Notes: generated from the sequence alone by a model not told the origin. Shown: positions 32,672 to 57,408, counted from the stretch's first letter. The stretch is 64,000 bases of DNA from a virus (IMGVR_UViG_3300042905_002309:169278-233277); one strand, 5' to 3'. Translations and numbers: made by a program.

Positions 32672-32702
32672 CCCCTGCCCGAAAGGGTGGTGGATTTTTT
32701 GT
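32672..32702 (+). terminator. rho-independent terminator
   Basis: CCCCTGCCC-GAAA-GGGTGGTGG hairpin followed by ATTTTTTG. Confidence 0.65.
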
Positions 32703-32730
32703 TGACAGTATCACGTTTTTATGAGAGACT
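32702..32730 (+). promoter_or_regulatory. promoter, leaderless type (TTGACA 32702-32707, N17, GAGACT 32725-32730; ATG at 32737)
   Basis: Read directly from sequence. Six nt lie between the -10 box and the ATG, with no SD. Confidence 0.6.
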
Positions 32731-32736
32731 ATAAAC

Positions 32737-33072
32737 ATGAAGAAGCAGTATAAGAAATCTTGTAAAGAAGTATTGATTAAATATACTGAACAGGGTTCAG
32801 ATGCAATTAAACAGGTGATAGTTCACCACACTAGTAAGAGTAAGGCTATATTGGCATGGAAGAAAAGTAATCCCAATGCTCGATTAGTACCTATGCCATC
32901 AAGTGGTGAATATTCTGTAGAGGCTTATACTATAGTAAAATGTTGTAGAACGTGTAAACATTTTCAAGAATATTGCAATCTATATCCAGACTATCCTTCA
33001 AGAGGACAATGTTTAAAAACCACCAACATGATGTTATGGTTTAACGAATGTAAGGATTTTGAGGCTAAATGA
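32737..33072 (+). CDS. hypothetical Cys-containing protein
   Basis: 111-aa ORF starting at the predicted transcript 5' end. Confidence 0.6.
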   Translation: MKKQYKKSCKEVLIKYTEQGSDAIKQVIVHHTSKSKAILAWKKSNPNARLVPMPSSGEYSVEAYTIVKCCRTCKHFQEYCNLYPDYPSRGQCLKTTNMMLWFNECKDFEAK

Positions 33073-33206
33073 AACCATATAGTGATAAAATTAATCCTAA
33101 AGGTATGTCAGGTCGTAGGAAGTCAAAGAATACTGCACATCGTAGACGATCATTAAGAGTTGATAAGAAGTCAGCAAGACAGGCAGGAAAGAAAAATGAA
33201 TATTAA
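33069..33206 (+). CDS. small highly basic protein (45 aa)
   Basis: ATGA overlap with the upstream gene. R/K-rich. Confidence 0.35.
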   Translation: MKPYSDKINPKGMSGRRKSKNTAHRRRSLRVDKKSARQAGKKNEY

Positions 33207-33663
33207 TCTAAAATATCTAAGATACATTTTAATACATAAGTACTACGTTTTTAAAGCCTGTCTAAAATATGGATTGGTTTGGCGAGGGCTTGTACACGAT
33301 TTATCAAAATTGCGTCCATCAGAGTTTATACCTTATCGTGAATACTTTTATGGAGATTTAAGCAATACTGATGAATGTGCAACAAACTTTGATTATGCTT
33401 GGAAGTCTCACCAGAAATGTAATAAACATCATCCCCAATATTGGCTATTGAAGAATGATGATGGTAAGCTACGCCCCTTAGAAATGCCATTGGTATACCG
33501 TCAGGAGATGGTAGCAGATTGGAGAGGTGCAGGGATGGCTATCAATAGTAAGGATGAGGTTCTAGCGTGGTATACTAAAAATAGGTTGAAAATGATTATT
33601 GCGCCTGTTACCAGAGCATGGGTTGAAAATGAAATTGGATATAAAGAAGGAAAGGTAATATGA
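33196..33663 (+). CDS. hypothetical protein (HDLSK motif)
   Basis: ATG 33196 follows GGAAAG. Confidence 0.55.
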   Translation: MNINLKYLRYILIHKYYVFKACLKYGLVWRGLVHDLSKLRPSEFIPYREYFYGDLSNTDECATNFDYAWKSHQKCNKHHPQYWLLKNDDGKLRPLEMPLVYRQEMVADWRGAGMAINSKDEVLAWYTKNRLKMIIAPVTRAWVENEIGYKEGKVI

Positions 33664-34046
33664 AAACTATAAAGGGTTGGAAAGTAATTAGAGTAAAAGA
33701 TAGAAGGTCGGCAGTTACGACAATGGGTTGCACAGAGCAAGGAAAGTATATTTTACATTACCCTGTAGGTGTTACAGTTAAACCTAAAGTAGCGGGTACT
33801 AAGATATTATTTTTCAAAAAATTAGTACACGCCGAAATCTTTCGAGATATAAATAGTAAAGATTATAACGAACTTTTTATTGTTCCTTGTATTGCACAAG
33901 GGGCTTCAAAAATTAAAATAGTTTCTAATTTAATGCAAATTGATGATTTTTGGAAGCTTAAAAAATCCAAAAAAGGTGTTGGTTGCTTTAGTTGGATGGC
34001 TCCAAGTGGAACATATGGCGCAGATTCAATTAAATGTTTGAAATAA
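33660..34046 (+). CDS. hypothetical protein
   Basis: ATGA overlap with the upstream gene. Confidence 0.55.
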   Translation: MKTIKGWKVIRVKDRRSAVTTMGCTEQGKYILHYPVGVTVKPKVAGTKILFFKKLVHAEIFRDINSKDYNELFIVPCIAQGASKIKIVSNLMQIDDFWKLKKSKKGVGCFSWMAPSGTYGADSIKCLK

Positions 34047-34057
34047 ATTTGTTTAGG

Positions 34058-34087
34058 TTGTGGTATTGTTTTATCAGCTTGTAGACT
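34058..34087 (+). promoter_or_regulatory. weak promoter candidate (TTGTGG, N18, TAGACT)
   Basis: Read directly from sequence. Lies upstream of the GIY-YIG gene. Confidence 0.3.
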
Positions 34088-34112
34088 AAATAATTGTAGG
34101 AGTAATACAATT

Positions 34113-34808
34113 ATGTACATTTACAAGACAACTAACAAATTAAATGGTAAAATTTATATCGGACTTTCAAAGTTTGCGCCACAAGAAAATCCAGAGTATT
34201 TAGGTTCTGGTTATATCTTAAAGAAAGCTATTGAATGTTATGGTGCAGAGAATTTTGTAAAAGTTATTTTAGAAGAATGTTCTACACAGGAACAGCTATT
34301 AGAACGAGAAAGATACTGGATAGCCACATTAAAAGCTAATGACCGCAATGTGGGTTATAATATTTGTGAGGGTGGAACATGGGGTGACAATTGGACTAAT
34401 CATCCTAATAAAGAAGAATGGCGCAAAAAACTTAGTGAATCTAATCGTGGCAAGAAGAATGGTAATTATGGTAATCGATGGACTGATGAACAGAAAAGAA
34501 AAGCATCAGAAAGAGTAAAATTAAATCCTATAGGAATTGATCCTAAAACTGGTGAACACTATACAAAGAATCCTGAAACTAGAAAAAAATTATCAGATAC
34601 GAAATTAGGTTTAAATAATCCACACTCAAATTTATGGAAATTAGTATCGCCCATAGGTGAAATTTTTATAATAGAAGGTGGAATCAAAAAGAAAATTAAA
34701 GAATGTGGTTCAGACTATCAACAATTTAAACACGCTTTAATATTACCTGACGGTGGACGAAGAAATCTTAAAGGTTGGACACTATATAAATTAGAAAAAC
34801 CAATATAA
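34113..34808 (+). CDS. GIY-YIG homing endonuclease
   Basis: IYKTTNKLNGKIYIGLS...YLGSG...RERYWI plus NUMOD-like repeats (SESNRGKKNGNYG). Confidence 0.85.
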   Translation: MYIYKTTNKLNGKIYIGLSKFAPQENPEYLGSGYILKKAIECYGAENFVKVILEECSTQEQLLERERYWIATLKANDRNVGYNICEGGTWGDNWTNHPNKEEWRKKLSESNRGKKNGNYGNRWTDEQKRKASERVKLNPIGIDPKTGEHYTKNPETRKKLSDTKLGLNNPHSNLWKLVSPIGEIFIIEGGIKKKIKECGSDYQQFKHALILPDGGRRNLKGWTLYKLEKPI

Positions 34809-34811
34809 TTG

Positions 34812-34840
34812 TTGACAATAGCTACGAAATAATGTAGATT
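34812..34840 (+). promoter_or_regulatory. leaderless-type promoter (TTGACA 34812-34817, N17, TAGATT 34835-34840, ATTACAC, ATG 34848)
   Basis: Read directly from sequence. Same -10-to-ATG architecture as the promoters at 48830 and 37797. Confidence 0.65.
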
Positions 34841-34847
34841 ATTACAC

Positions 34848-36038
34848 ATGAAAGAGATTAAAGGACAATTTAATACTGCGAAGGTGTTTGCATCAACAGT
34901 CGAACCTTCTTGTGAAGCACAAATTTTAGAGTTATGTAATGAAGAATGGGTATATAACTCTAAAATACGCATTATGGCAGACTGTCATTCTGGTAAGGGA
35001 TGTGTTATTGGTACTACTATGACAATTATTGATAAAATTGTTCCTAATTTAACCGGGGTTGATATCGGATGTGGGGTTCTTGTGACTAAATTTGATACGC
35101 TTTCTTTAACCTTGGAACAGGTTGACTCAATTGTTAAGCGTAACATCCCTATGGGTATGAATTCTCGTCAGTCTATGGTGGTTGACTTTACTCCTGAATT
35201 GGATAAGGCTATCTGTAAGGAAGCTTTTGATCCTCGTCAGGTTTGTAAGTCCATTGGTTCGTTGGGTGGTGGAAACCACTTTATCGAAATTGATAAGGAC
35301 GATGAGGGTAATTTTTATTTAGTCGTACATACGGGTTCTCGTAACTTTGGTAAGCGTGTTGCTGAACATTACCAGAACAAGGCTGTTGATTATCATTCCA
35401 AGAAGGGTTTGAAGTCTACTCAAGAAATCATTAACGAGTTGAAAGCCAAGGGGTTACAACACATGATTCCTGCTGAATTGAAGAAACGTAATGCCGTGGC
35501 TAACGAAGCTTTGACCTATTTGGAAGGTGACTTGTTTGATTGTTACTTAAACGATATGCATATTGCTCAGAAGATGGCAAGTGAGAACCGTAAGGCTATT
35601 GCAGATATCTTGTGCCGTACAATGCATATTAAGCCTACTGAACAATTTGAAACGATTCATAACTACATTGATGTTCATGCTATGATTTTGCGTAAAGGTG
35701 CTATCTCTGCGAAAGCGGGTGAAGTGTGCTTAATTCCTATCAATATGCGTGATGGTTCGTTAATCTGTGTTGGTAAGGGTAACGAAGATTATAACTATTC
35801 TGCGCCTCATGGTGCAGGTCGTTTAATGTCTCGTAAACAGGCGAAGCGTGAATTGTCTTTGGAAGGGTTCAAGGATACGATGAAGGATATTTATTCATCT
35901 ACGGTGGGTGCGTCTACGTTGGACGAAGCACCTGATGCTTACAAGCCTATTGCTGAAATCTTGGAGAACATTCAGGATACGGTTACGGTGTTGAAGCAGA
36001 TCAAGCCTATTTACAATGTGAAAGCGGAAGAGGAATAA
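34848..36038 (+). CDS. rtcB: RtcB RNA 3'-phosphate/2',3'-cyclic-phosphate ligase
   Basis: GVDIGCG, GGGNHFIE, HTGSRNFG and SAPHGAGR motifs. Confidence 0.92.
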   Translation: MKEIKGQFNTAKVFASTVEPSCEAQILELCNEEWVYNSKIRIMADCHSGKGCVIGTTMTIIDKIVPNLTGVDIGCGVLVTKFDTLSLTLEQVDSIVKRNIPMGMNSRQSMVVDFTPELDKAICKEAFDPRQVCKSIGSLGGGNHFIEIDKDDEGNFYLVVHTGSRNFGKRVAEHYQNKAVDYHSKKGLKSTQEIINELKAKGLQHMIPAELKKRNAVANEALTYLEGDLFDCYLNDMHIAQKMASENRKAIADILCRTMHIKPTEQFETIHNYIDVHAMILRKGAISAKAGEVCLIPINMRDGSLICVGKGNEDYNYSAPHGAGRLMSRKQAKRELSLEGFKDTMKDIYSSTVGASTLDEAPDAYKPIAEILENIQDTVTVLKQIKPIYNVKAEEE

Positions 36039-36041
36039 ATA

Positions 36042-36164
36042 ATGAAGGTACTACTATGTCTAGTTTGTATTACATTTATTACTGGATGTTCGACATACAA
36101 TAATAGAAAATACATACCAGAAGCGGGTAGTACCGAATTATTTCCAACCCATAGGATAAATTAA
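36042..36164 (+). CDS. small lipoprotein (40 aa)
   Basis: Signal peptide plus lipobox ITGC. Confidence 0.45.
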   Translation: MKVLLCLVCITFITGCSTYNNRKYIPEAGSTELFPTHRIN

Positions 36165-36165
36165 A

Positions 36166-36393
36166 ATGAACGAAGATATTAAACCATTACCATGTCCCTT
36201 TTGTGGCGAGATTCTTACATTTCAAATTGATGAAATGGGTGGGGTGTGGTACGAACATAGTGATCGCAATCCTTATACTGTCTTTACATATAAGACAAAC
36301 TATAATGAAGCAAAGCGTTGTGTGTTGTCACATTTTACCTTAGATGGTGATCCAAAAGCTATTAAACAATGGAATGATCGAATAAAGGATTAA
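36166..36393 (+). CDS. Lar-family-like zinc-ribbon protein
   Basis: PCPFCGE ... AIKQWNDR pattern. Confidence 0.45.
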   Translation: MNEDIKPLPCPFCGEILTFQIDEMGGVWYEHSDRNPYTVFTYKTNYNEAKRCVLSHFTLDGDPKAIKQWNDRIKD

Positions 36394-36394
36394 T

Positions 36395-36973
36395 ATGGAC
36401 ATTCGCAAAGTTAGTAAAATATTGTGTTTAAGTTTACGACATAAACCAGAACTTTTGAAATTGAATATGGATTCCGAAGGTTGGGTTGATGTCAATGAAT
36501 TAATCCGCAGATACAATAATTACTATAAGCCTGACACTTACCTTAATAGGAATTTTCTTGATAAGGTGGTTGAAGAGAACAATAAGAAGCGTTTCGCCTA
36601 TAGTGATGATGGTACAAAGATTCGTGCCTCTCAGGGACATTCGATTAATATTAATTTGAATCTTCCTGAGAGTGTTCCAGAAGATATTTTATATCATGGA
36701 ACAGCTAAACGTTTTCTTAATGGTATCATGAAAGAAGGTTTGAAGAAAATGGAGCGTCAACACGTTCATTTATCTGACAATCTTAAAACAGCTTATTCAG
36801 TAGGTTCACGACATGGAGAACCTATTATTCTTATGGTACATGCGGGTGTAATGCATAAGAATGGGTTTAAGTTTTACAAATCCGAGAATGGGGTATGGTT
36901 GACTGATAATGTTCCGAAACAATATCTTGACTTTGCACCAATAATTGCGTATACTACTGGCTACGGTAAATAA
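36395..36973 (+). CDS. kptA: RNA 2'-phosphotransferase Tpt1/KptA
   Basis: LSLRHKPE...GWV...SQGHS...LYHGT...HVHLS motifs. Confidence 0.88.
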   Translation: MDIRKVSKILCLSLRHKPELLKLNMDSEGWVDVNELIRRYNNYYKPDTYLNRNFLDKVVEENNKKRFAYSDDGTKIRASQGHSININLNLPESVPEDILYHGTAKRFLNGIMKEGLKKMERQHVHLSDNLKTAYSVGSRHGEPIILMVHAGVMHKNGFKFYKSENGVWLTDNVPKQYLDFAPIIAYTTGYGK

Positions 36974-36983
36974 AGGATAAATT

Positions 36984-37217
36984 ATGGGATATGATTTTAC
37001 AATAGAGAAGTATTACAAAGTTAAAAAGGAAGGTCGCTATCCTGCACCATGTCCTAGAGATAAAAACGACACTTGGTTGTTATTTGATGATGATATTTTG
37101 ACTAAAAATGAAGATGGTACGTTTGCGTGTCAAACAGGTATATGCAGAATTGGCATTATCCTTAAAGATGATGAAATTGAATATTTTGAGAAACCAGTTA
37201 GATTACGTATCGGGTAA
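36984..37217 (+). CDS. hypothetical protein
   Basis: SD AAAGGA upstream. Confidence 0.55.
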   Translation: MGYDFTIEKYYKVKKEGRYPAPCPRDKNDTWLLFDDDILTKNEDGTFACQTGICRIGIILKDDEIEYFEKPVRLRIG

Positions 37218-37225
37218 GGCTTAAT

Positions 37226-37564: not shown

Positions 37565-37565
37565 T

Positions 37566-37793: not shown

Positions 37794-37796
37794 TTA

Positions 37797-37825
37797 TTGA
37801 CTAATACAATTAAACAATGTAGTCT
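37797..37825 (+). promoter_or_regulatory. leaderless-type promoter (TTGACT 37797-37802, N17, TAGTCT 37820-37825, ATTAAAC, ATG 37833)
   Basis: Read directly from sequence. The track TTG start codon is actually the -35 box. Confidence 0.6.
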
Positions 37826-37832
37826 ATTAAAC

Positions 37833-38960
37833 ATGAATAAAACATATCCAATTATTTACAAAAGAACTAAAACGTCAGCAATTCAGACATGGCAGATCAT
37901 AGTCGAGGGTAACACTTATTATACCGTAGATGGTCAAATAGACGGTGTTAAGAGCAAATCTGCGCCTACTGTGTGTAAGGGTAAGAACATTGGCAAGGCT
38001 AATGAGACTTCCGATGAACAACAGGCTATTGCAGAGGCAGAAGCTAAAATTGAAAAGAAGCTTAAAACAGGCTATAGTGAAGATATTGCAAATATCGATA
38101 CCTGTCTAAAGTATTTTGAGCCACAACTTGCTGAAAAGTATATTGAATTTAAGGATAGTGTTGTATTCCCCATCTTGGCAAGTCGTAAGATCGATGGTGC
38201 AAGAATGGTGAATACAGCTACAGCTATTACCACTCGTAAGGGTGAAGATTATCTAAGCTGTCCACATATTCAGAAGGCACTTAAACCCTTCTTTGCCAAG
38301 CATCCTAAAGGTGTGGTTGATGGTGAAATTTATTCACACGGTCAATTCTTTGAGAAGATCATGAGTCTTGTGCGTAAGAAGAAACCAACACAAGCTGAAA
38401 TTGATGAAAGTGAGAAGCTTTGTAAATTGTGGATTTTCGATGGTATTGTAGACGATTCAAAGGAAGGTTTTGCAAAGCGTTTTTCAGACCTTAAACGAGA
38501 ATTGAAGGCTACTATTGATTCTAAAACACTTGAAAAGTATTTTGTGTTTGTAGAGAATGTAGTAATCAACAGTCATGAAGCGTTTGAAGCTGAACATGAT
38601 AAGTATGCGGGTGAAGGATTTGAAGGTGCAATTCTTCGTTATGCCAATGCTCCGTATTACAATAAGCGTAGTAAGTATCTTTTGAAGTATAAGCATTTCA
38701 TTGATGAAGAGTTTGTGATTGTTGATTTTCTTGAAGGTACTGGTTCTGATGCAGGGTTGGCTAGTAAGATCGTAGTCCGTTTGAAAGATGGTTCAACGTC
38801 AGAAGCGGGTATCCGTGGTGATACTGCATACGTCACTCAGTTGTTGAAGGATCGTAAGCATTACATTGGCAAAAAGGCAACAGTTCGTTATCAGAATTTC
38901 ACCAAGTATGGTAAGTTACATTTTGGTGTAGCGGTTAATATTGATCGATTTGATATATGA
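37833..38960 (+). CDS. ATP-dependent DNA ligase
   Basis: Motif I KIDGARM, motif IV EGAILR, motif V LLKYK. Confidence 0.85.
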   Translation: MNKTYPIIYKRTKTSAIQTWQIIVEGNTYYTVDGQIDGVKSKSAPTVCKGKNIGKANETSDEQQAIAEAEAKIEKKLKTGYSEDIANIDTCLKYFEPQLAEKYIEFKDSVVFPILASRKIDGARMVNTATAITTRKGEDYLSCPHIQKALKPFFAKHPKGVVDGEIYSHGQFFEKIMSLVRKKKPTQAEIDESEKLCKLWIFDGIVDDSKEGFAKRFSDLKRELKATIDSKTLEKYFVFVENVVINSHEAFEAEHDKYAGEGFEGAILRYANAPYYNKRSKYLLKYKHFIDEEFVIVDFLEGTGSDAGLASKIVVRLKDGSTSEAGIRGDTAYVTQLLKDRKHYIGKKATVRYQNFTKYGKLHFGVAVNIDRFDI

Positions 38961-39217: not shown

Positions 39218-39246
39218 TATGATTATACGAAATAAAGGAGATTCAG

Positions 39247-40281: not shown

Positions 40282-40300
40282 ACTCCATTAGAAAGTTAAT

Positions 40301-41041: not shown

Positions 41042-41093
41042 GTTTGTACATATCATTATACGATGAAAAAATTACAGGAGAAAGTGTATAAAA

Positions 41094-41812: not shown

Positions 41813-41813
41813 T

Positions 41814-42239
41814 ATGCAAACATTTTTACCATCTAATGATTTTATCGAATGTGCTAAAATACTCGATAAACGGAGACTCAATAAACAGAAGGTTGAATGT
41901 TATCAAATATTAAAAACATTGCATCTAGGTGATAATGCTAAAGGTTGGCGTAATCATCCTATTGTTAAAGCGTGGAGAACACATGAGGAAACATTAATCG
42001 AATATTCATTAATTATTGCCAACGAATGTATCAAACGTGGTATGAAGGATACATTAATACCTAAAATTTCAGAATTTAAAAATTATTTCAAAAATACTAC
42101 ATATCCTTCTTGGTTAGGTGACGAAGCTTTTCATAACACACATAAATCAAATTTAATGCGTAAAGCACCGGAATACTATAAACAATTCAATTGGAAGGTT
42201 CCCAATAATTTACCGTATATTTGGCCTATTGGTAATTGA
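41814..42239 (+). CDS. Pyr_excise-like (pyrimidine-dimer DNA glycosylase family) protein
   Basis: LDKRRLNKQKVECYQIL...GWRNHPIVKAWR...ECIKRG resembles the remembered family pattern LD...L...R.E......GY.NHP...F. Confidence 0.45.
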   Translation: MQTFLPSNDFIECAKILDKRRLNKQKVECYQILKTLHLGDNAKGWRNHPIVKAWRTHEETLIEYSLIIANECIKRGMKDTLIPKISEFKNYFKNTTYPSWLGDEAFHNTHKSNLMRKAPEYYKQFNWKVPNNLPYIWPIGN

Positions 42240-42270
42240 CATTCAATAAGAAGGGGTATATGGTTACGCT

Positions 42271-42666
42271 ATGAAAATTAACAAAGTAAATATGATTAAT
42301 GTAAGTGAATGGGATAAGCTCGTAAAGGATACTTATAAGCGACCATATTGCTTCCAACAACAAGATGGGTGTAAAGATCGAGGAACTTTTCCTATAACTG
42401 TACCAGAGTTTGCAGATGATTATGAAAATGATACTGTTCCAGAAGAGGTCAATCACGAAGAAATGGGTGTAAGTTTTAAGGCATGGCTTAATCGTGACCC
42501 CAAATCACCATTGAAAGACGAAGAAGAGGGTAGTGACACAGAACAATGGGAGATTGATATGTGGTGGGATCGCAACTTCTATCCTAATATTCAAATGATT
42601 GCAAACGATTTACAGGAACGTGGTCTATTAGATGCTGGTGATTATGTGATAAATATTGATTGGTGA
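42271..42666 (+). CDS. hypothetical acidic protein
   Basis: 131-aa ORF. Confidence 0.55.
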   Translation: MKINKVNMINVSEWDKLVKDTYKRPYCFQQQDGCKDRGTFPITVPEFADDYENDTVPEEVNHEEMGVSFKAWLNRDPKSPLKDEEEGSDTEQWEIDMWWDRNFYPNIQMIANDLQERGLLDAGDYVINIDW

Positions 42667-43513: not shown

Positions 43514-43521
43514 AATATTAG

Positions 43522-43550
43522 TTGACTTTGTAACGAAAATAGTAAACAAT
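43522..43550 (+). promoter_or_regulatory. promoter, copy 1 of GTTGACTTTGTAACGAAAATAGTAAA (ATG 43557 lies 6 nt after the -10 box)
   Basis: A 26-27 nt stretch is identical to 43781-43807. Confidence 0.55.
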
Positions 43551-43556
43551 TGATTT

Positions 43557-43778
43557 ATGAAACGTGGTAAAAAATCCTGTACTAATAAGAAAAAATGGGC
43601 AGACACCCTTCCAGACCCACAATTTTGCATAAGGTGTAAGAAAAGTGCTGATGGTTATATCTTAAAAGATAGTATTTTGGATAGTTATACCACAGAAGGT
43701 TCACAACCACCCGCAAAATTGGGCATATGTAAACAATGTAAACAATCGTCTGGAACAAGAATATATTGGTATAAATAG
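43557..43778 (+). CDS. small basic zinc-ribbon protein
   Basis: CIRCKK...CKQCKQ motifs. Probably leaderless. Confidence 0.55.
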   Translation: MKRGKKSCTNKKKWADTLPDPQFCIRCKKSADGYILKDSILDSYTTEGSQPPAKLGICKQCKQSSGTRIYWYK

Positions 43779-43781
43779 TTG

Positions 43782-43810
43782 TTGACTTTGTAACGAAAAT
43801 AGTAAATAAT
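43782..43810 (+). promoter_or_regulatory. promoter, copy 2 of GTTGACTTTGTAACGAAAATAGTAAA, followed by a 9-bp-stem hairpin in the 5' UTR
   Basis: AAACATTGC...GCAATGTTT hairpin at 43813-43848, upstream of the NAD salvage genes. Confidence 0.55.
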
Positions 43811-43880
43811 TGAAACATTGCGATAGATAATAGTTATAAGCAATGTTTAACTGAAATAATAAGATCGAAAGGAAAATATT

Positions 43881-48555: not shown

Positions 48556-48833
48556 AAACTTGGGAAACACGTTTGAAAGAAGCGGTTCAAAATAAACGCT
48601 TTACCAAAGAAGATGTCAAAGAAGCGCAATTGTGGACTACTGATCCTATCTCCGAAATTAAAGATAAGATAGAACTTAAAAACAATGACATTAAATTTGG
48701 CCCGAAAGATATCTACCTAATCTTAGATGGAATCTTCTTTACCAAAGGTGTCGAAGAGAATGATGTAGCGTTAGCAGAGGCTTGTTACAAGGGAATTCAT
48801 AAAAGAGTTGAAAAACTTTACAAAACAGTTTGA
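48552..48833 (+). CDS. hypothetical protein
   Basis: ATGA overlap with the upstream gene. Its stop lies inside the -35 box of the next promoter. Confidence 0.55.
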   Translation: MKTWETRLKEAVQNKRFTKEDVKEAQLWTTDPISEIKDKIELKNNDIKFGPKDIYLILDGIFFTKGVEENDVALAEACYKGIHKRVEKLYKTV

Positions 48834-48858
48834 CATTTAATAACGAAAAGGGTAATCT
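48830..48858 (+). promoter_or_regulatory. leaderless-type promoter (TTGACA 48830-48835, N17, TAATCT 48853-48858, ATTACAC, ATG 48866)
   Basis: Read directly from sequence. The track TTG start at 48830 is the -35 box. Confidence 0.65.
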
Positions 48859-48865
48859 ATTACAC

Positions 48866-49927
48866 ATGAAAGTATACAACACAGACAAACTACGAATTTG
48901 CAAAAGCGAAGATTATAACTACGTTTTTGACAAGACAAACGGATTCTTCGCTCGTTGGGGTAAAACGAAAGAAGACGATCCTCAGTTCGCACCGATGCCT
49001 GAAATCCTTGATATCGAAGTGACTACCATTTGTTATGGTGTGCCACATATTGATAAAGAGGGTAAACCTACTCCCCGTATCCCTTGTAAATTCTGTTACA
49101 AGTCAAATACATCGAATGGTGTCAATATGCCTTTCTCCAATTTCAAGATCATCCTTGATAAGATGCCTTGGTTGCTTCAAGTAGCCTTTGGTGCTGATTC
49201 AGAGTGTTCTTCAAATCCTGATATCTGGAAAATGATGGGTTACTGCCGTGAGAAGGGTGTCGTGCCTAATATCACTGTAGCTAATATTACTGACGAAACT
49301 GCTGACAATTTGAAGAAATATTGTGGGGCTGTTGCTGTCTCTCGTTATGATAATAAAAACCTCTGCTATGATTCTGTCAAGAAATTAACGGATCGTGGTA
49401 TGGAACAGATTAATATTCACATTTTGGTGTCTGATAACACCTATGATATGGTTATGGAAACTCTTAAAGACCGATTGACCGACAAGCGACTTGAAAAGCT
49501 TAATGCCATCGTACTCTTGAACTTGAAACAAAAAGGTCGTGGTGAGGCGTATAACACCCTTACTGATGATAAATTCAAGGTGCTTGTAGACTTTGCGTTT
49601 GATAATAAGATTACTATTGGGTTTGATTCATGTGGTTGCAACAAGTTTCTACGTGTAATCAAGGATTATCCTAATTTTAAAGAAATGGAAATGGTGTCGG
49701 AACCTTGTGAGTCAAGTTTATTCAGTTCGTACATTGATGCTAACGGAGATTTCTATCCTTGTAGCTTCTGTGAGGGACATTGCAAAGGTTGCTTGTCTTG
49801 GGAAACTGGTTTAAGCGTGTTGAAGGCTGATGATTTCCTCAAGGATATCTGGCATAATGAGAAGACAAAAATTTTTAGGGACGTACTTTTGAAAAATGGT
49901 CGTAATTGCCCTATGTATAATGTGTAA
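48866..49927 (+). CDS. radical SAM enzyme with C-terminal SPASM/twitch-like Cys cluster; atypical C-x17-C-x2-C motif
   Basis: PEILDIEVTTIC-(17 aa)-CKFCY. C-terminal FDSCGC ... EPCESSLFSSYIDANGDFYPCSFCEGHCKGC. Confidence 0.7.
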   Translation: MKVYNTDKLRICKSEDYNYVFDKTNGFFARWGKTKEDDPQFAPMPEILDIEVTTICYGVPHIDKEGKPTPRIPCKFCYKSNTSNGVNMPFSNFKIILDKMPWLLQVAFGADSECSSNPDIWKMMGYCREKGVVPNITVANITDETADNLKKYCGAVAVSRYDNKNLCYDSVKKLTDRGMEQINIHILVSDNTYDMVMETLKDRLTDKRLEKLNAIVLLNLKQKGRGEAYNTLTDDKFKVLVDFAFDNKITIGFDSCGCNKFLRVIKDYPNFKEMEMVSEPCESSLFSSYIDANGDFYPCSFCEGHCKGCLSWETGLSVLKADDFLKDIWHNEKTKIFRDVLLKNGRNCPMYNV

Positions 49928-49935
49928 GGAGTAGT

Positions 49936-50280
49936 ATGAAAATTCGAAGTGGATTTGTAAGTAATAGTTCAAGTAGTTCATTCATCGTACAGGCATGTGA
50001 TGTAGAACGTGCTAAAAGTATGGGTTTAACACTCATTTCAGTTAAAACTCTTAAAGAGTATAATAAAAAGCTTACAGAACTTGAAAACTCTAAAGCTGAG
50101 ATTATGAAGGATGTGCCTAGTTTTCTTGGTGGTGGATATAATTATTATGGATCACAAATTGATATCTTAGGTATTGATAATTTGGATGATGCAGATTTCA
50201 TTTCGGAGCCGTATGACCGTGATGAGGCGTATAGAAGTGGTATGGATGATTATTTTAGCACATTTTTGAGTGACTTGTAA
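49936..50280 (+). CDS. paralog 1 of the MKIRxGFVSNSSSSSF family (114 aa)
   Basis: SD AAGGAG upstream. N-terminus MKIRSGFVSNSSSSSF. 8-nt gap after the radical SAM gene. Confidence 0.8.
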   Translation: MKIRSGFVSNSSSSSFIVQACDVERAKSMGLTLISVKTLKEYNKKLTELENSKAEIMKDVPSFLGGGYNYYGSQIDILGIDNLDDADFISEPYDRDEAYRSGMDDYFSTFLSDL

Positions 50281-50288
50281 GGAGATTT

Positions 50289-51098
50289 ATGAAAATTAGA
50301 AACGGATTTGTGAGTAACAGTAGTTCTAGTAGCTTTGTGGTAGTATTACCTAAAAAGCCTGAATACTGTCAACAAGTTTATGAAATGTTATTCAATAGTA
50401 AGAAAGAGATAATCAAAGAAGAGTATTTAGGTGAATTGGATACTCATCAAATTTCAGAACTCGTATATAGGGATTTAGTCAATACTAAATTCAAGAGAGC
50501 TACGGTTCAAGAGGTTGCTGACTTATTTTCTGCACGTTATCATTATTGGATCAACGCTAATAGTCTCATGATGGATAATAAGGTCGTTGATAAAGACGGT
50601 GGAACCTTTTACTGTGCATCCAATAATTTTTGGGGTACTGATAAGAAGTTATTAGAATTATACAAACAATCCGTTATCAAATGTGACAAAAACTCCAAAA
50701 TGATTCAGAAACGTGCTAACGAAGTTGAAAAGAATGCACCGAATCGTGTTGAATATGCTTATAAAGACGGAAAGAATTATAAGGACGTACCTTATACTGA
50801 TACCCAAATTAAAGCCTATAAGAAATACGAAAAAGAACTTGACTTTTATCAGAAAAATGATAAAGTTTACAAAGATTTTATCAAATGGAGAGATAAGATT
50901 CATAGGTCTGATTGGGACTTGGAGCATAAATATCGCCATGCGTTAGCTAAAGTAGATGCCAAAGCATTTTTGAAGGCGTACAAGGGTAAGTTTGTATTCA
51001 CTACATCTTATTCAGATAATGATGGTTCAATTGGAGCCTTGATGGAGCATGGAAATATTTTTAGAAATGTCGAGCATGAGCGTATTAGTATGCATTAA
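50289..51098 (+). CDS. paralog 2 of the MKIRxGFVSNSSSSSF family (269 aa)
   Basis: SD AAGGAG upstream. N-terminus MKIRNGFVSNSSSSSF. Confidence 0.8.
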   Translation: MKIRNGFVSNSSSSSFVVVLPKKPEYCQQVYEMLFNSKKEIIKEEYLGELDTHQISELVYRDLVNTKFKRATVQEVADLFSARYHYWINANSLMMDNKVVDKDGGTFYCASNNFWGTDKKLLELYKQSVIKCDKNSKMIQKRANEVEKNAPNRVEYAYKDGKNYKDVPYTDTQIKAYKKYEKELDFYQKNDKVYKDFIKWRDKIHRSDWDLEHKYRHALAKVDAKAFLKAYKGKFVFTTSYSDNDGSIGALMEHGNIFRNVEHERISMH

Positions 51099-51109
51099 GA
51101 AAGGAAATT

Positions 51110-51409
51110 ATGAAAATTAGACAAGGATTTGTAAGTAACAGTTCTAGCAGTTCGTTCTGCATCTATGGTGCGTACCTTGGTGAAGATCGTGATGAAGCAG
51201 AAGCTATTGAAGCGAAGATTGGTGAACTTGGATTAAAATTAGAGGTTCATTATGGGGAGTATACTCGATGTGTTGGACGCTCATGGTGTTCTATCGGAAA
51301 TGATGAAACTGGTAAAGCATTCAAGGATGGTATTGATGAAGCTGTAACGAAACTTGGTCTTGATGCCAAAAAGACCACTACAATCGAAGAGTCTTGGTAT
51401 AACGGTTAA
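51110..51409 (+). CDS. paralog 3 of the MKIRxGFVSNSSSSSF family (99 aa)
   Basis: SD AAAGGAAA upstream. N-terminus MKIRQGFVSNSSSSSFC. Confidence 0.8.
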   Translation: MKIRQGFVSNSSSSSFCIYGAYLGEDRDEAEAIEAKIGELGLKLEVHYGEYTRCVGRSWCSIGNDETGKAFKDGIDEAVTKLGLDAKKTTTIEESWYNG

Positions 51410-51418
51410 GGAGAAATT

Positions 51419-51796
51419 ATGAAAATTAGAAACGGATTTGTGAGTAATAGTAGTTCAAGTAGTTTTTGTATCTTTGGTGTCGAGTTGACCGAAAAGGAAT
51501 ACAAAGCACTTATAGCAAAAGAAATTGCTGCAATGAAAGAAGAAGAGGGTGAAGATTTTGATGAAGAAAGTTGCGATATCCAAGATATGCTTTCAGAATG
51601 CGCCTATATTAAAAAGAATAAGTTAGATATAGTATCAACGTCCTTGGATGGTGTCAGTCTTTGTATTGGATTAGATTTATCAGATTCTTCATTAAAAGGT
51701 GAAAAACTTATTATTGAACTTACCAGAATTCATAATATTTTAAATCGTGATTATTCCCATGAGGTAGAAATCTTTTCGGGTGAGACTTATAATTAA
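51419..51796 (+). CDS. paralog 4 of the MKIRxGFVSNSSSSSF family (125 aa)
   Basis: SD AAGGAG upstream. N-terminus MKIRNGFVSNSSSSSFC. Confidence 0.8.
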   Translation: MKIRNGFVSNSSSSSFCIFGVELTEKEYKALIAKEIAAMKEEEGEDFDEESCDIQDMLSECAYIKKNKLDIVSTSLDGVSLCIGLDLSDSSLKGEKLIIELTRIHNILNRDYSHEVEIFSGETYN

Positions 51797-51805
51797 GGAA
51801 TAAAT

Positions 51806-52138
51806 ATGAAAATTAGAAACGGTTTTGTAAGTAATAGTAGCAGTTCTTCATTTATTTGTTCAGTCTGTGGTGAATCTGAAACATATTATGATGGGCTTGA
51901 AGAAGCGGGTGCAATACAGTGTGAAGGTCAATGGCATATTTTCCACGAGGATTGTGTCAAGAAATTTGATCTTGAATTTACGGAAGACCGTAATTATGGT
52001 AAATGTGTGACAAGAGCTAGTTGTCCTATTTGTAATCTTTCGGTTCTTCCAGACAGTGACGAGTTGACATTCTTACGTGAAAAGTATAAGATGTCTAAAG
52101 ATGAGATTCTAACAGAGTTACGTAAAACGAAAGGTTAA
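51806..52138 (+). CDS. paralog 5 of the MKIRxGFVSNSSSSSF family (110 aa, Cys-rich, zinc-ribbon-like)
   Basis: SD AAGGAA upstream. N-terminus MKIRNGFVSNSSSSSFICSVCG, later CPICN. Confidence 0.8.
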   Translation: MKIRNGFVSNSSSSSFICSVCGESETYYDGLEEAGAIQCEGQWHIFHEDCVKKFDLEFTEDRNYGKCVTRASCPICNLSVLPDSDELTFLREKYKMSKDEILTELRKTKG

Positions 52139-52139
52139 T

Positions 52140-53029: not shown

Positions 53030-53562
53030 GTAAAACAATTGTAGTAAATTTATTTGCAGGTCCGGGAACTGGTAAATCAACCACTATGGCAGGTGTGTTC
53101 AGTGAGTTGAAATTGCGTGGCATTAACTGTGAAATGGCTCCTGAATTTGCCAAGGAAAAGGTTTGGGAAGGCTCATTAGGCATCCTTGAGAACCAGATTT
53201 ATATCTTTGGTAAGCAGTTACACGCTATTCATCGACTATTGGGAAAGGTTGATGTGATTATTACAGATTCACCCTTGCTATTATCATTGGTTTATGGTAA
53301 ACATGAAACTGAAACTTTTAAGAAGTTTGTATTAGAGGTGTTTCATAGACAGAATAATGTCAACTATTTCTTGGAACGTAAAAAGGCTTACAATCCTTCT
53401 GGGCGATTACAGACAGAGGAACAAGCGAAGGGTATTGATCGTACTGTATATGATCTTTTAATGGCAAATGATGTACCATTCTTTAAGATTCCAAGTTGTA
53501 AAGATTCTTTTAGTGTGATTGCTAACGATGTAGAAGAAATGATGAAGGTTCGACATGGATAA
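53026..53562 (+). CDS. P-loop NTPase/kinase-like protein
   Basis: Walker A GPGTGKST. Walker B-like VIITDSP. Confidence 0.55.
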   Translation: MSKTIVVNLFAGPGTGKSTTMAGVFSELKLRGINCEMAPEFAKEKVWEGSLGILENQIYIFGKQLHAIHRLLGKVDVIITDSPLLLSLVYGKHETETFKKFVLEVFHRQNNVNYFLERKKAYNPSGRLQTEEQAKGIDRTVYDLLMANDVPFFKIPSCKDSFSVIANDVEEMMKVRHG

Positions 53563-54166
53563 TGATATAAATGTTATGAAAATCAAGCTTTTACACCCTG
53601 ACGCAAAATGTCCAGTACAGGCGCATCCAAATTCAGACGCAGGTTATGATGTGTTTGCTATCGATGATGGTGTAGAAAAAATAGAGATTAGAAGGGAATA
53701 TATAGCTGATAATCCAGTCGCCAACGTAAGAGAAATTTTCATATACAGAGAGTATCGTACTGGATTGGCTATAGAATTACCTATTGGTTATCATTGTGAA
53801 TTATTTCCACGTTCATCTATTACTAAAATGGATTTAATGTTGAAAAATTCCATTGGATTAATTGATAATGAATATCGTGGTGAATTGATATTCAGGTTTC
53901 ACCAGTTTCCAATGGTAAATGGTACAAATTCTGTTTACAAAAAGGGTGATAGGATTGGTCAAATTGTCTTGAGAAAGACTATCCATATGCCTATAATGGT
54001 TGTCGATGAATTAAGCGATACGAGTCGTGGTACAGGTGGATTTGGTAGTAGTACAGGTGAATTCCATATCGTGGCAGGTGCTACAAACGTGGGTAAAAGT
54101 TGTTTTAAAAGTGAAGAAGTGAATCCGATTTATAAATCAATTGGTGTAGATACAAGGATGATATAA
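53555..54166 (+). CDS. dut: dUTPase (trimeric type) with a C-terminal extension of about 35 aa
   Basis: AGYDV, PRSS, GLIDNEYRGE, GDRIGQ and RGTGGFGSSTG motifs. Confidence 0.82.
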   Translation: MDNDINVMKIKLLHPDAKCPVQAHPNSDAGYDVFAIDDGVEKIEIRREYIADNPVANVREIFIYREYRTGLAIELPIGYHCELFPRSSITKMDLMLKNSIGLIDNEYRGELIFRFHQFPMVNGTNSVYKKGDRIGQIVLRKTIHMPIMVVDELSDTSRGTGGFGSSTGEFHIVAGATNVGKSCFKSEEVNPIYKSIGVDTRMI

Positions 54167-54168
54167 TT

Positions 54169-54687
54169 ATGAAATACAAAAGTGAATTATTAGGTGCAAC
54201 AGTTTATCCTGAATTAGATGTAATATTCTTCTACGGGGGAATCTTCTCACAATGGGCAGAATGTAAGTTCCATTGTACAGCATTAAACCTTGAAGTGAAT
54301 TGTGCTGAACAAGCGATGATGCTTCATAAGGCAAAATTCTTTAAAGATCAGGAAATCTATGATGCCATTCTTGCAACAGATCATCCTAGAGATCAAAAGG
54401 CTTTAGGTCGTATGGTTAAGAATTTTGATCCTATGGCATGGGAAACGGTTGCATTTAATTATGTCAAAGATATCAATGTTGATAAATTTGGTCAAAATAA
54501 GGGATGGAAAGAATTGTTATTCTTGACTGATCCTTACCATTTGGTCGAAGCTTCTCCTACAGATAGAATTTGGGGTATTGGTATGGGTGAAGATAATCCA
54601 GATATTTTGAATGATACGAAATGGGGTAGAAACCTATTAGGTGAAGCTATTGTACAGGCTAGAGTAGAATTGATGTTTCCATCCTAA
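54169..54687 (+). CDS. NADAR (YbiA/DUF1768) domain protein
   Basis: FS.W...F......EQ.MM..KA.FF.D......I......P...K.LGR.V..FD...W ... LVEASP.DRIWGIG. Confidence 0.75.
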   Translation: MKYKSELLGATVYPELDVIFFYGGIFSQWAECKFHCTALNLEVNCAEQAMMLHKAKFFKDQEIYDAILATDHPRDQKALGRMVKNFDPMAWETVAFNYVKDINVDKFGQNKGWKELLFLTDPYHLVEASPTDRIWGIGMGEDNPDILNDTKWGRNLLGEAIVQARVELMFPS

Positions 54688-55099
54688 GATTAAGATAATA
54701 ATTAACAACTAAAAATTGTTTGTAATACTCAATGTCTTTTGGTGTAACACGGTTATAAGCAACCCACCCAAAGGCATTGAGTACTTGTGTCATAACTTGA
54801 CGCTTACCCCAAGCAATATCATTACGCTTACAAAGATCGTACCAAACATCATTAGCCTTCATTACACCTACATAATGGGTGCGATAAAGGATGTCATGTA
54901 CAATTGCGGCAGGTAATATCTTACCATTAAAAGGTGTTTCGCCTATAATAGACCAAGCAAACCAAGGGATAGATGCCCCATCAAAAATAAAACCACGCTT
55001 TATAGTAATTTTACCTATAATTGTATCAATAGTGTAATCAGTTAAAAGATAAGCTTCTTTTTCACTAATAAAATAAATCTCTGGTGATGGCAAATTCAT
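54659..55099 (-). CDS. DUF1353-like protein
   Basis: FIFDGASIPWFAWS...AAIVHDILY. Confidence 0.5.
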   Translation of the reverse strand: MNLPSPEIYFISEKEAYLLTDYTIDTIIGKITIKRGFIFDGASIPWFAWSIIGETPFNGKILPAAIVHDILYRTHYVGVMKANDVWYDLCKRNDIAWGKRQVMTQVLNAFGWVAYNRVTPKDIEYYKQFLVVNYYLNLRMETSILL

Positions 55100-55119
55100 G
55101 ATCCGTACCTTTCAATTAT

Positions 55120-55446
55120 TTATAACTGCTTCACAAAAAGTTTCAAAATAGTTATAACTTCTTCCATAGTAATGTAATGCTTAATAACCTTTTCTGACTT
55201 AATTACCTTAGTTTCAGTCCAATCCTTATGTAAATAATGCACCATCTCGTGTAAGAGTGTAGGGATTACATCATAGAATGCTGCTAGTGTGATCGTTTCC
55301 TCGTCATAAAAGCCTGTAATGCCTTTTAAATGCTTCTTGAATACGAAGTCAGGCATATCATCTTTTGGTTGTTTTAAAGCCATTGTGATAGCCTTAATGA
55401 GGGTCTTAGCCTGTTTCTCTTTATCCTCTCGTGACTTAGCTTTCAT
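55120..55446 (-). CDS. small HExxH metalloprotease-like protein
   Basis: LLHEMVHYLH. Confidence 0.45.
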   Translation of the reverse strand: MKAKSREDKEKQAKTLIKAITMALKQPKDDMPDFVFKKHLKGITGFYDEETITLAAFYDVIPTLLHEMVHYLHKDWTETKVIKSEKVIKHYITMEEVITILKLFVKQL

Positions 55447-55464
55447 AATAGCCCTTTATAAGGG

Positions 55465-55896
55465 TTAATGCAAACTATCGTATACTTTACAGAATTCTTT
55501 GAAGGTCATTTTCTCCTTCAAGTTATAAATTTCTTTCATGTTAAAATTTTTATCGTATTGATCCTTGACAGTACTGGATAAATGTGGTTTAGTGTCCTTT
55601 AAGAATTTTTGTACAACTGGTGGGATTTTCTTCAAAGTTAATGGGTCGTACTTATAGCTTTTATGCTTCTTAGCGTCATGAATCATTGGTTTGGTACATT
55701 CGGGACAGTCTAAGCCATAGAGAAAGGTTTTCATATACATTCTGATGATTTTTTTAAGATCAGGTGTATTATAAGGCCAAGTTTCTACTCGTGCATCAGC
55801 ATCAAAGGTTATGCCACAATGTGGACAAGTTGTATCTGCAATCCAAGGCATTTCCTGGATCAATTCTAATTTTGTATATGGATTTAATATACGCAT
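55465..55896 (-). CDS. hypothetical zinc-binding protein
   Basis: CPHCG...CPECT motifs. Confidence 0.55.
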   Translation of the reverse strand: MRILNPYTKLELIQEMPWIADTTCPHCGITFDADARVETWPYNTPDLKKIIRMYMKTFLYGLDCPECTKPMIHDAKKHKSYKYDPLTLKKIPPVVQKFLKDTKPHLSSTVKDQYDKNFNMKEIYNLKEKMTFKEFCKVYDSLH

Positions 55897-56044
55897 AAAA
55901 GTATTTAGTATTTAAAGTTGGTGTTTTGGGGTATCGAATCACCCTTTAATAAATTTTCGTCTATAAATAGAGGTTGTAAATTACCCCAATGAAAAGCTAA
56001 AATTCTACCTGTATTATCATCCAATAAATCGTTCTTAACAAAGA

Positions 56045-56082
56045 AAGAAAAAGAGTCAGAACGTTAATCCTGACTCTTTTCT
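56045..56082. terminator. bidirectional rho-independent terminator
   Basis: AGAGTCAG/CTGACTCT 8-bp stem flanked by an A-run and a T-run. Confidence 0.65.
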
Positions 56083-56100
56083 AATATCTATCAAGGTTTC

Positions 56101-56892
56101 TTAGAATTCGCCTTGAATGTATAAACGTCCATGTTCAAGTTGGGATGTCCAAATACCCCACGTAGGTTGAGCACTAGCTTCAACAACCAAAGAAGTCTTA
56201 CCAACATCATCGGTAGCATATACACCATAGTAATAAGTTTCATCAGAATAAGCCGCAACTGTAAGATCAACTGCACTCATAGAAAGTGAAGTTGCTGTAT
56301 AAACGGCTGTACCCATACCAACGGCTGTCACAGGAGCCACAATGCTTTGTTCAACTGTTACTGTAACCCAATCAGCGGCGGGATTTGTCCAAGTTAAAGC
56401 CACTTGTTTATCACCTGCTGTAGCGGTTAATCCTGTAACAGGATCGGGGGCTGCTGAATCACCTAAAACAACAAGAACACCCGGATTAGATGTCATAAAA
56501 TTACCTCTATAAGATGAAGTTTCTGCACCTTGGGTAGTTCCAGCACTTATTTCTGCATAAGCTGTCATATAAGAAGATAATATAAGATTATCTGTATTTG
56601 CATGTAAATAGTCATTATTAACTGTTACTGTATAACCAATATACTCCGTTGTAGAACCATCTACAACTAGTGTGCGTGGCAATGCTGCACCAGATATAGT
56701 AAATGTATAAGCTGTTGGGCTAGAGGACACTGCATTCCCCATAGTCATTTCGTCTATTCGTACTGCCGTTACTGATGATACGCTAAGACTGTCTGTTAAA
56801 CCGAATCGTACTAATCCTTCATATGTCCCACTAGCACCATAGTTTAAAGATTGTCCAGAAATCACTTCCATTGTTGTTATTTGTATTGCCAT
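56101..56892 (-). CDS. fibronectin-type-III-domain protein (possible virion decoration or fibre-like protein)
   Basis: PDPVTGLTATAGDKQVALTWTNPA is a typical FN3 start. Beta-rich, Ser/Thr/Ala/Gly/Val-rich composition. Confidence 0.55.
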   Translation of the reverse strand: MAIQITTMEVISGQSLNYGASGTYEGLVRFGLTDSLSVSSVTAVRIDEMTMGNAVSSSPTAYTFTISGAALPRTLVVDGSTTEYIGYTVTVNNDYLHANTDNLILSSYMTAYAEISAGTTQGAETSSYRGNFMTSNPGVLVVLGDSAAPDPVTGLTATAGDKQVALTWTNPAADWVTVTVEQSIVAPVTAVGMGTAVYTATSLSMSAVDLTVAAYSDETYYYGVYATDDVGKTSLVVEASAQPTWGIWTSQLEHGRLYIQGEF

Positions 56893-56912
56893 AAAATTAT
56901 TCTCCTGTTTTC

Positions 56913-56941
56913 TTATAAGTATTTATCGAATTTGATTGCAA
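56913..56941 (-). promoter_or_regulatory. promoter for the minus-strand FN3 gene (TTGCAA, N17, TTATAA)
   Basis: Read on the reverse complement. Shares the palindromic TTGCAA -35 box with the divergent plus-strand promoter. Confidence 0.5.
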
Positions 56942-56963
56942 TTTTATGAAAATATGGTAAATT
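56936..56963 (+). promoter_or_regulatory. leaderless-type promoter (TTGCAA, N16, TG-extended TAAATT, ATTACAT, ATG 56971)
   Basis: Read directly from sequence. Confidence 0.5.
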
Positions 56964-56970
56964 ATTACAT

Positions 56971-57408
56971 ATGAACACACCAGAATACAAAATTTTAGCA
57001 GGATTATCCGTAGATGAGGTACAAAGGCTTGTAAATCAAGCTATTCAGGAAATTGGCAAAGAAGTAACTTTATTAGGGGGTATGGTAGCAGAAATATATC
57101 AAGGATTTCCACCTACGTACTATCAGACCGTTTTAATCACTAATAAATTTAGCGAAGCACTATTAATGGAAAATTTTGGCATAGGAATTGATTATAAACG
57201 AGAATTGCAACTTTTACACGAAGATAAAGAAAAGTCTACACCTTCTGCAAGTGATCCCTACCCTCTTGAAGTTTTAACCGAACCTATTAAAGAAGGTGTC
57301 ATTACTACTATTATACCAGATCATCTTAAAAAATCGAAGAAAAAGAAAGATGTTCCAAAGGTAATACACGAATCTAATCAACGAACACCTAATTCTTGGG
57401 ATTTATAA
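56971..57408 (+). CDS. hypothetical protein
   Basis: 145-aa ORF with no SD, starting at the predicted transcription start site. Confidence 0.55.
   Translation: MNTPEYKILAGLSVDEVQRLVNQAIQEIGKEVTLLGGMVAEIYQGFPPTYYQTVLITNKFSEALLMENFGIGIDYKRELQLLHEDKEKSTPSASDPYPLEVLTEPIKEGVITTIIPDHLKKSKKKKDVPKVIHESNQRTPNSWDL

Follow-up and report, generated by a model that had tools for sequence, protein, structure and literature searches.

The stretch of DNA analysed here, IMGVR_UViG_3300042905_002309:169278-233277 (referred to as the window), spans 64 kb at 35.6% G+C and carries almost all of its genes on the + strand. It belongs to the genome of an uncultivated phage, about 250 kb in size, that is distantly T4-like, apparently lytic and without a close relative in culture; the phage occurs in lakes and sediments (for example JGI 3300034112, 3300046001, 3300035187; SRR27335593). 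This identification is based on its gene content, on the lack of a nucleotide match to isolated phages (megablast with 20 kb of the window) and on the many metagenome contigs, the longest of 249,720 bp, on which its RtcB protein recurs with 100% identity. The best protein matches are a T4-like rIIA and an uncultured 595-kb phage. The window contains rIIA/rIIB-like genes and an RNA-repair and nucleotide-metabolism set comprising RtcB, Tpt1/KptA, an RNA ligase, a CCA-adding enzyme, NAMPT and NUDIX. About 35-40 host-type (sigma-70/sigma-A-like) promoters of the form TTGACA-17 nucleotides (nt)-nAnnnT-ATT(A) are predicted in it, and a minority of them run directly into the start codon of a gene, including those for RtcB, an ATP-dependent DNA ligase and a radical-SAM/SPASM protein. 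The promoter-abutted starts, and a terminator that precedes one of them, are as follows; scores in bits refer to a promoter matrix described below.

34812..34850, + strand: RtcB promoter, TTGACA-N17-TAGATT-ATTACAC-ATG; gene 34848-36038, 396 amino acids (aa), Pfam RtcB E = 7e-59
37797..37835, + strand: ATP-dependent DNA ligase promoter, TTGACT-N17-TAGTCT-ATTAAAC-ATG; gene 37833-38960, 375 aa
48830..48868, + strand: radical-SAM/SPASM promoter, TTGACA-N17-TAATCT-ATTACAC-ATG; gene 48866-49927, 353 aa
56936..56973, + strand: 56971 gene promoter, TTGCAA-N16-TGgTAAATT-ATTACAT-ATG, with a TGn extended -10; gene 56971-57408, 145 aa, no assigned function
32702..32739, + strand: 32737 gene promoter, TTGACA-N17-GAGACT-ATAAAC-ATG; gene 32737-33072, 111 aa, no assigned function
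32675..32699, + strand: intrinsic terminator-like hairpin and T-run (terminator scan), ending the transcription unit of the Band_7 gene just 5' of the 32702 promoter
42236..42273, + strand: 42271 gene promoter, TTGACA-N17-TATGGT-TACGCT-ATG, 15.6 bits; gene 42271-42666, 131 aa, phrog_27943
43522..43559, + strand: promoter of the 43557 open reading frame (ORF), TTGACT-N17-AACAAT-TGATTT-ATG, 10.7 bits; Cys-rich ORF 43557-43778, 73 aa
13416..13454, + strand: 13452 ORF promoter, cassette-type, TTGACA-N17-TAAAGT-ATTAATT-ATG, 17.7 bits; ORF 13452-13625, 57 aa
374..457, + strand: micro-ORF promoter, cassette-type; the ATG at the predicted +1 opens a 15-aa micro-ORF, 410-457

Eight of these sites had been tabulated in an earlier note on this DNA and read exactly as given there; the 42271 gene is an additional case recovered by a scan for TTGAC-N16-18-nAnnnT. 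The weakest -10 box of the set is that of the 43557 site (AACAAT). The 56971 promoter lies within a 78-nt divergent intergenic region, and the radical-SAM/SPASM gene heads an operon with five paralogues that begin MKIR. Elsewhere the junctions are tight: the distance from the upstream stop codon to the -35 box is 0-4 nt for RtcB, the ligase, the radical-SAM gene and 42271, and 9 nt for 43557. At 42236-42241 and 48830-48835, as well as in a relative (L041:4001-4006), the upstream gene even ends within the -35 TTGACA, which supplies its TGA stop.

We consider it probable, at roughly three chances in four, that eight of these promoters (nine with the doubtful micro-ORF) start leaderless or near-leaderless mRNAs, with 5' untranslated regions of 0-2 nt.

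Start codons, spacing and conservation

The association between promoter and start codon far exceeds what base composition would produce. The pattern TTGACn-N17-nAnnnT-N6/7-ATG occurs 11 times on the + strand of the window and 0 times on the - strand, versus a mean of 0.53 and a maximum of 3 in dinucleotide-preserving shuffles (n = 300). Likewise, an ATG stands at an offset of 6-7 nt after 11 of 41 promoter-like sites, where 2.15 are expected (Poisson p = 1.6e-5), and all other ATG offsets hold at most three sites each. Eight of the 11 pattern ATGs are the first codon of a gene in the interval. Three ATGs look fortuitous, namely that of the 15-aa ORF at 410, that of a 9-codon ORF after 20252 and one, out of frame, after 14231. 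The start of the micro-ORF at 410 is probably fortuitous, lying in what looks like the ordinary leader of gene 459: that gene has its own Shine-Dalgarno (SD) sequence, and past promoter 374 the DNA is similar to the leader typical of promoters 5448 and 4616.

Homologues indicate where the proteins begin. RtcB homologues align from residue 1, and even distant ones have the equivalent Met. The ligase of a close relative (L018, 44% identity) aligns from residue 1 and other phage ligases from residues 3-8; public gene calls also give the window's ligase as 375 aa. Ten radical-SAM homologues start no more than two residues away from ATG 48866, the homologue of the 42271 protein at L039:3095 aligns over residues 1-131, and those of the 56971 protein (P0242-P0244) start at the same Met, with MNT(P/T)EYKI. 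By this measure the abutting ATG is the true start of RtcB, the ligase, the radical-SAM gene, 42271 and 56971; it is not established for 13452, 43557 and 32737. The earlier note had allowed that the true starts might lie downstream behind their own SDs, but the best such alternative in RtcB falls 78 codons inside the conserved domain. The note was also right that the ORF track begins two of the genes at the -35 TTG (37797..38960 for the ligase and 48830..49927 for the radical-SAM gene). This TTG is in frame with the ATG because 6 + 17 + 6 + 7 nt add up to 36 nt, or 12 codons, and the same mis-start is found in the public gene call of an orthologue (P0123, 360 aa, L041:4001).

None of the promoter-abutted genes has an SD at functional spacing. 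The assertion that they have no SD at all is fully borne out for RtcB, the ligase, 56971, 43557 and 32737, and less so for 13452, 42271 and 48866, whose promoter spacers contain the SD-like strings weighed in the next section. In 61 of 68 SD-led genes of the window, by comparison, an SD core (AAGG, AGGA or GAGG) lies 4-10 nt from the start codon, and the later genes of each abutted unit keep their own SDs. That nearly all other genes have a strong SD was somewhat overstated: about 85 of some 112 genes on the + strand pass the crude anti-SD pairing cut-off by which SDs were called. The base preceding the start codon is C in five of nine candidates versus nine of 85 SD-led genes.

The strongest argument for leaderless starts is comparative. 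Four close relatives (L018, L040, L041 and L098) came from exact-protein look-ups. In the first, RtcB (71% identity) begins behind TTGACC-N17-TAGGAT-ATTAAAC-ATG (L018:963-1001) and the ligase behind TTGACA-N17-TACTAT-ATTAACC-ATG. The radical-SAM gene is preceded by TTGATT-N17-TACTAT-AGACAAC-ATG in the second (L040:1587-1625, 82% identity) and by TTGACA-N17-TAGTAT-TACTCCT-ATG in the third (L041:4001-4039, 73% identity). The geometry of a 17-nt spacer and a 7-nt gap is thus constant in orthologues that are 44-82% identical in protein, while the DNA of the spacer and gap has diverged.

A third gene of L018, following a terminator, starts at TTGACA-N17-GATACT-ATTAAAC-ATG (junction 400-468). This region (L018:370-468) is homologous to window positions 32640-32739 from the end of the Band_7 gene (96% identical) through the terminator to the promoter-ATG junction. 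The genes that come after the junction differ, encoding 111 aa in the window and 166 aa in L018 with no similarity to each other, which suggests gene swapping at terminator-promoter junctions.

Farther away, the arrangement at RtcB gives way to conventional initiation. At the same Met, distant RtcB genes are SD-led (GGAGG, GAAAGG or AGAGGAA), both at 66% identity (L015, L016 and L039) and at 48-53% (L001-L009), and scans of IMG/VR and metagenomes with RtcB returned only relatives of at most 53% identity, all of them SD-led. Because the distant genes are SD-led at the same Met, the SD of RtcB was replaced by a promoter within this phage lineage. In the window and its close relatives, a relaxed search finds about 1-3 gene-start matches per 10 kb; in 293 kb of distant loci it finds almost none, the matches there being one recurring ATG internal to RtcB. 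The L039 homologue of the 42271 gene has no abutting promoter. In the same distant locus (L039:2640-2711), a terminator is followed by TTGCGA-N17-TATAAT-ATATGC-ATG before an 81-aa gene, and because of this site promoter-abutted starts appear to occur occasionally outside the close lineage as well.

Transcription start and competing explanations

Bacterial RNA polymerase starts most often 7 bp after the -10 box, with a purine at +1 and a pyrimidine at -1 (PMC5730371). With a 6-nt gap the A of the ATG is position 7 after the -10 box; with a 7-nt gap it is position 8 and follows a C or T. By these rules transcription by the host RNA polymerase would begin with the A of the ATG or no more than 2 nt 5' of it. 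The resulting mRNA would be devoid of leader and SD, and ribosomes would recognise its 5'-terminal AUG directly. Very compact stop-promoter-ATG junctions would be a likely consequence. Leaderless initiation, as proposed in the earlier note, is well supported by the start codons that coincide with homologous N-termini, the missing usable SD and the preserved geometry; the accompanying ideas of a distinct promoter class and a functional theme fare worse, as set out below. Both the start site, deduced from the polymerase's rules, and the mode of translation that follows from it are predictions.

Several observations weigh against leaderless initiation or soften the case for it. The 7-nt gaps place the A of the ATG at position 8 and not at the modal position 7, and ATTACAC offers a second good start in the A at position 6, from which a 2-nt leader would result; either start would give a functionally leaderless mRNA. 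Use of these promoters by the host polymerase is predicted from consensus only. The pyrimidine at -1 is a weaker argument than it seems, being present in 73% of SD-led genes, so that only the excess of C is distinctive. The predicted folding energy of the 5' end does not separate abutted genes from others (the difference is not significant), all starts being unstructured. Two of the ORFs are themselves uncertain: for that at 43557 only a weak PHROG match was found and its coding status has no independent support, and the ORF at 13452, with no homologue found, is unconfirmed. The intergenic region 5' of the 56971 homologue in L098 is nearly identical to that of the window and is therefore not an independent test. 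Finally, AAGG(G/T)-like strings lie 13-15 nt from the ATG in the promoter spacers of 13452 (AAAGGTG, 15 nt 5'), 42271 and 48866, and no terminator precedes RtcB, the ligase or the radical-SAM gene, so read-through transcripts must also exist.

These last two points are what an alternative built on read-through has in its favour. The promoters would be real, but the proteins would come mainly from longer transcripts, either by re-initiation or 70S scanning past an upstream stop codon 0-40 nt away or by way of the weak SD-like strings at long spacing. The position of the promoter would then reflect genome compaction only. The upstream stops that lie 0-4 nt from the -35 box or within it fit such a scheme, as does the absence of a terminator between the upstream gene and the promoter, which extends to 42271. 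Against it, the distance of 6 or 7 nt stays constant in orthologues while the spacer changes. The SD-like strings were rejected as true SDs: they fall beyond the normal spacing of 4-10 nt and are not conserved, being absent from the radical-SAM orthologues in L040 and L041. Moreover, the 32737 unit and its counterpart at L018:466 come after a terminator, so that read-through there should be low, and 56971 opens a divergent unit and is preceded by no gene on its strand. We therefore regard translation mainly from read-through RNA as unlikely. A read-through RNA would offer an SD-less internal AUG, for which reason translation would be tied to the gene's own promoter, and translation of the abutted genes probably depends on initiation there.

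A more elaborate proposal is that the genes form a dedicated regulon, translated preferentially when SD-dependent initiation fails, for instance when a nuclease of the host's defences has cut the 3' end of 16S rRNA, with RtcB carrying out the repair. The stress-ribosome model on which it leans is itself disputed. In E. coli, RtcB re-ligates the 16S rRNA 3' end cut by MazF, and ribosomes with the cut end have been reported to translate leaderless mRNAs (PMC5416887); infection by the Thermus phage phiYS40 alters IF2/IF3 to the benefit of its leaderless mRNAs (PMC3594737); and the window does hold an RNA-repair set in RtcB, Tpt1/KptA, the RNA ligase and the CCA-adding enzyme. Against this, the repair genes for Tpt1 and the RNA ligase start behind ordinary SDs, relatives of 66% identity or less have an SD-led RtcB, and no phage factor was seen that acts on initiation. 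The nucleic-acid repair theme suggested by the earlier note does not extend beyond RtcB and the ligase, the remainder of the eight being the radical-SAM gene and five small proteins with no assigned function. The genes are functionally incoherent, and leaderless status is not tied to a coherent stress or repair set. A regulon of this kind is accordingly improbable. The earlier note's idea of expression under compromised canonical initiation is likewise speculative and of low probability, its basis being an analogy with E. coli RtcB and MazF. Of similarly low probability is the related idea of a fail-safe, by which the SD of RtcB and a few other genes would have been exchanged for a promoter so that they are translated only from RNA begun at that promoter, with no need of the anti-SD. 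RtcB and DNA ligase could then still be made when a host defence damages the 3' end of 16S rRNA or blocks SD-dependent initiation in some other way.

The least probable explanation, that the arrangement is chance or an annotation artefact and the true starts lie elsewhere behind their own SDs, can draw on the one to two coincidences expected among about 41 promoter-like sites and on the fortuitous-looking cases at 410, 20252 and 14231, yet the excess over that expectation, together with the alignment of homologues from residue 1 and the conservation in relatives, largely refutes it for RtcB, the ligase, the radical-SAM gene, 42271 and 56971.

Promoter family and neighbouring genes

The abutting promoters do not constitute a promoter class of their own, as the earlier note had proposed. 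A generic promoter scan of the window revealed no overall excess at its loose threshold (76 matches vs 80.6 in shuffles); this threshold being too loose, a window-specific matrix was needed. It was trained only on 16 window promoters that lead into a leader and SD, or into a tRNA. With a cut-off of 10 bits it finds 39 matches on the + strand and 9 on the - strand, and 7.25 in shuffles; raising the cut-off to 14 bits leaves 21 matches on the + strand and 1 on the - strand, with 0.7 in shuffles. The ATG-abutting promoters score 10.7-18.6 bits with this matrix, although it was trained on leadered promoters. Both groups have TTGACA, a 17-nt spacer, non-consensus -10 boxes (TAGAGT, CATACT, GAGACT and others) and the ATT(A) that follows. 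Since the matrix recovers the abutting sites and the -35 box, spacer, -10 box and ATT(A) are common to both groups, no separate class needs to be invoked. The sole difference between them is where the ORF begins relative to +1. TTGACA, a spacing of 17 +/- 1 nt, TAnnnT and the excess on the coding strand are those of sigma-70/sigma-A-type promoters. Another polymerase or promoter type, such as T4 MotA-type middle promoters or a phage-encoded RNA polymerase, was rejected in view of the near-consensus -35 TTGACA at 17-nt spacing.

Part of this family is a repeated cassette between 349 and 14860 of the window, with promoters at 374, 1212, 3057, 4616, 5448, 11201, 12196, 13416 and 14804. Each cassette consists of an upstream element of about 25 nt (AAAACnTnArnATTTCAyrnagyag), TTGACA-N17-nAnACT and a conserved leader (TATTGAAGTTGAACGA / TATTAACAGTTGAACG). 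The abutting sites 374 and 13416 share the upstream element with the leadered cassette promoters. Dispersed among small genes and tRNAs, the cassette resembles an early-promoter family. The tRNA genes, the only matches in an Rfam search of the window, are the following, with at least tRNA-Tyr directly 3' of a cassette promoter (3057).

3120-3196, 8451-8511, 12549-12623 and 13172-13254: tRNA genes, Tyr-GTA, Lys-TTT and Leu-TAA with one further Rfam tRNA match

Some of the abutted genes have neighbours of their own interest. A direct repeat of about 34 nt (43520-43553 and 43780-43813) contains the whole 43557 promoter (TTGACTTTGTAACGAAAATAGTAAAyAATTGA) and flanks the 73-aa ORF. The promoter copy at 43782 has ATT instead of the ATG of the first copy and leads through a normal leader into the NUDIX gene. 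The repeat looks like a cassette insertion or duplication. Immediately 5' of RtcB lies a GIY-YIG/NUMOD3 homing-endonuclease gene (34113-34808), and GIY-YIG genes are also found 5' of RtcB in relatives (L015:9313-10026 and the P0012 contig). The five tandem paralogues 3' of the radical-SAM/SPASM gene (49936-52138) all start MKIR(N)GFVSNSSSSSF. They belong to no Pfam family, a weak match to phrog_7397 being the only one obtained, and the array is kept in four to five copies in relatives (L040:2901-3952 and L041:5655-7269).

A looser variant is seen at the CCA-adding enzyme gene (PolyA_pol head and HD, 61952-63455), where TTGACT-N17-TATTAT ends 14 nt before an SD-less ATG at 61995. At this spacing the leader would be short, about 7-8 nt. 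The start of the gene is uncertain, as the Pfam domain begins at residue 53 and an alternative ATG at 62103 is also without an SD.

Relation to known leaderless genes

The abutting arrangement is an already-known type of leaderless mRNA, of which these genes are new examples; no new mechanism is involved. The classical leaderless mRNA is that of phage lambda cI transcribed from PRM, which reads TAGATT-6 nt-ATG. Like PRM, the promoters described here are of the sigma-70 type with the predicted +1 at the A of the AUG, and the RtcB site reads TAGATT-7 nt-ATG. Whereas cI is one regulated repressor gene in a temperate phage, the genes here are several enzyme genes and operons of a large, apparently lytic T4-like phage.

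Bacterial leaderless genes have a published signature, TANNNT about 12 bp 5' of the start codon (Zheng et al. 2011, PMC3160421). Such TA-led genes are common in Actinobacteria and Deinococcus-Thermus and sporadic elsewhere (PMC3160421). The phage genes resemble them in that the first T of TAnnnT lies 12-13 nt before the ATG, no SD is present and the ATG coincides with the homologous N-terminus. The gap between the -10 box and the ATG is 6-7 nt at all nine sites, within the 5-8 nt of TA-led genes. They differ in having a near-consensus -35 box, in belonging to a phage that is mostly strongly SD-led and in making up only about 7% of the genes in the window.

The closest phage parallels are phiYS40, a Thermus phage in which most middle and late mRNAs are leaderless and infection shifts IF2/IF3 (PMC3594737), and P23-45. 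As in these, a large lytic phage relying on the host RNA polymerase is predicted to make leaderless mRNAs for multiple genes. In contrast to phiYS40, they are a minority here (about 9 of some 37 predicted promoters and about 8 of some 120 window genes) and the -35 box is present; a genome-wide regime of the phiYS40 type is not seen within the window. No leaderless transcripts were found in phiKZ and AR9 (PMC8244752, PMC5312081).

The arrangement is widespread in uncultivated phages and not particular to this one, because the exact motif opens reading frames in many unrelated sequences. A scan of IMG/VR for TTGACW-N17-TAnnnT-ATTAMAC-ATG returned 49 stretches, of which 34 open ORFs of at least 50 aa and 31 of at least 100 aa. 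A control pattern ending in GTA gave 7 matches, though it contains CpG and is only a rough guide. The contigs with the motif are unrelated and range from 29 to 58% in G+C content. One (L075:739-1944, IMGVR_UViG_3300022923_000027) carries a DNA ligase, 33% identical to that of the window, behind TTGACA-N17-TAGTAT-ATTAAAC-ATG. Other families are also represented, for example a 144-aa protein beginning MAILPSIDN that was seen 14 times.

The main value of these observations lies in annotation and in the predicted natural switch at RtcB from SD-led to leaderless initiation. Gene finders mis-start such genes at the in-frame -35 TTG, and promoter-abutting ATGs need to be recognised in large phages. 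The switch at RtcB, from an SD to an abutting promoter at one and the same Met, would provide a small natural system for asking why phages go leaderless, with genome compaction, insulation from read-through transcription and SD-independent expression as candidate reasons.

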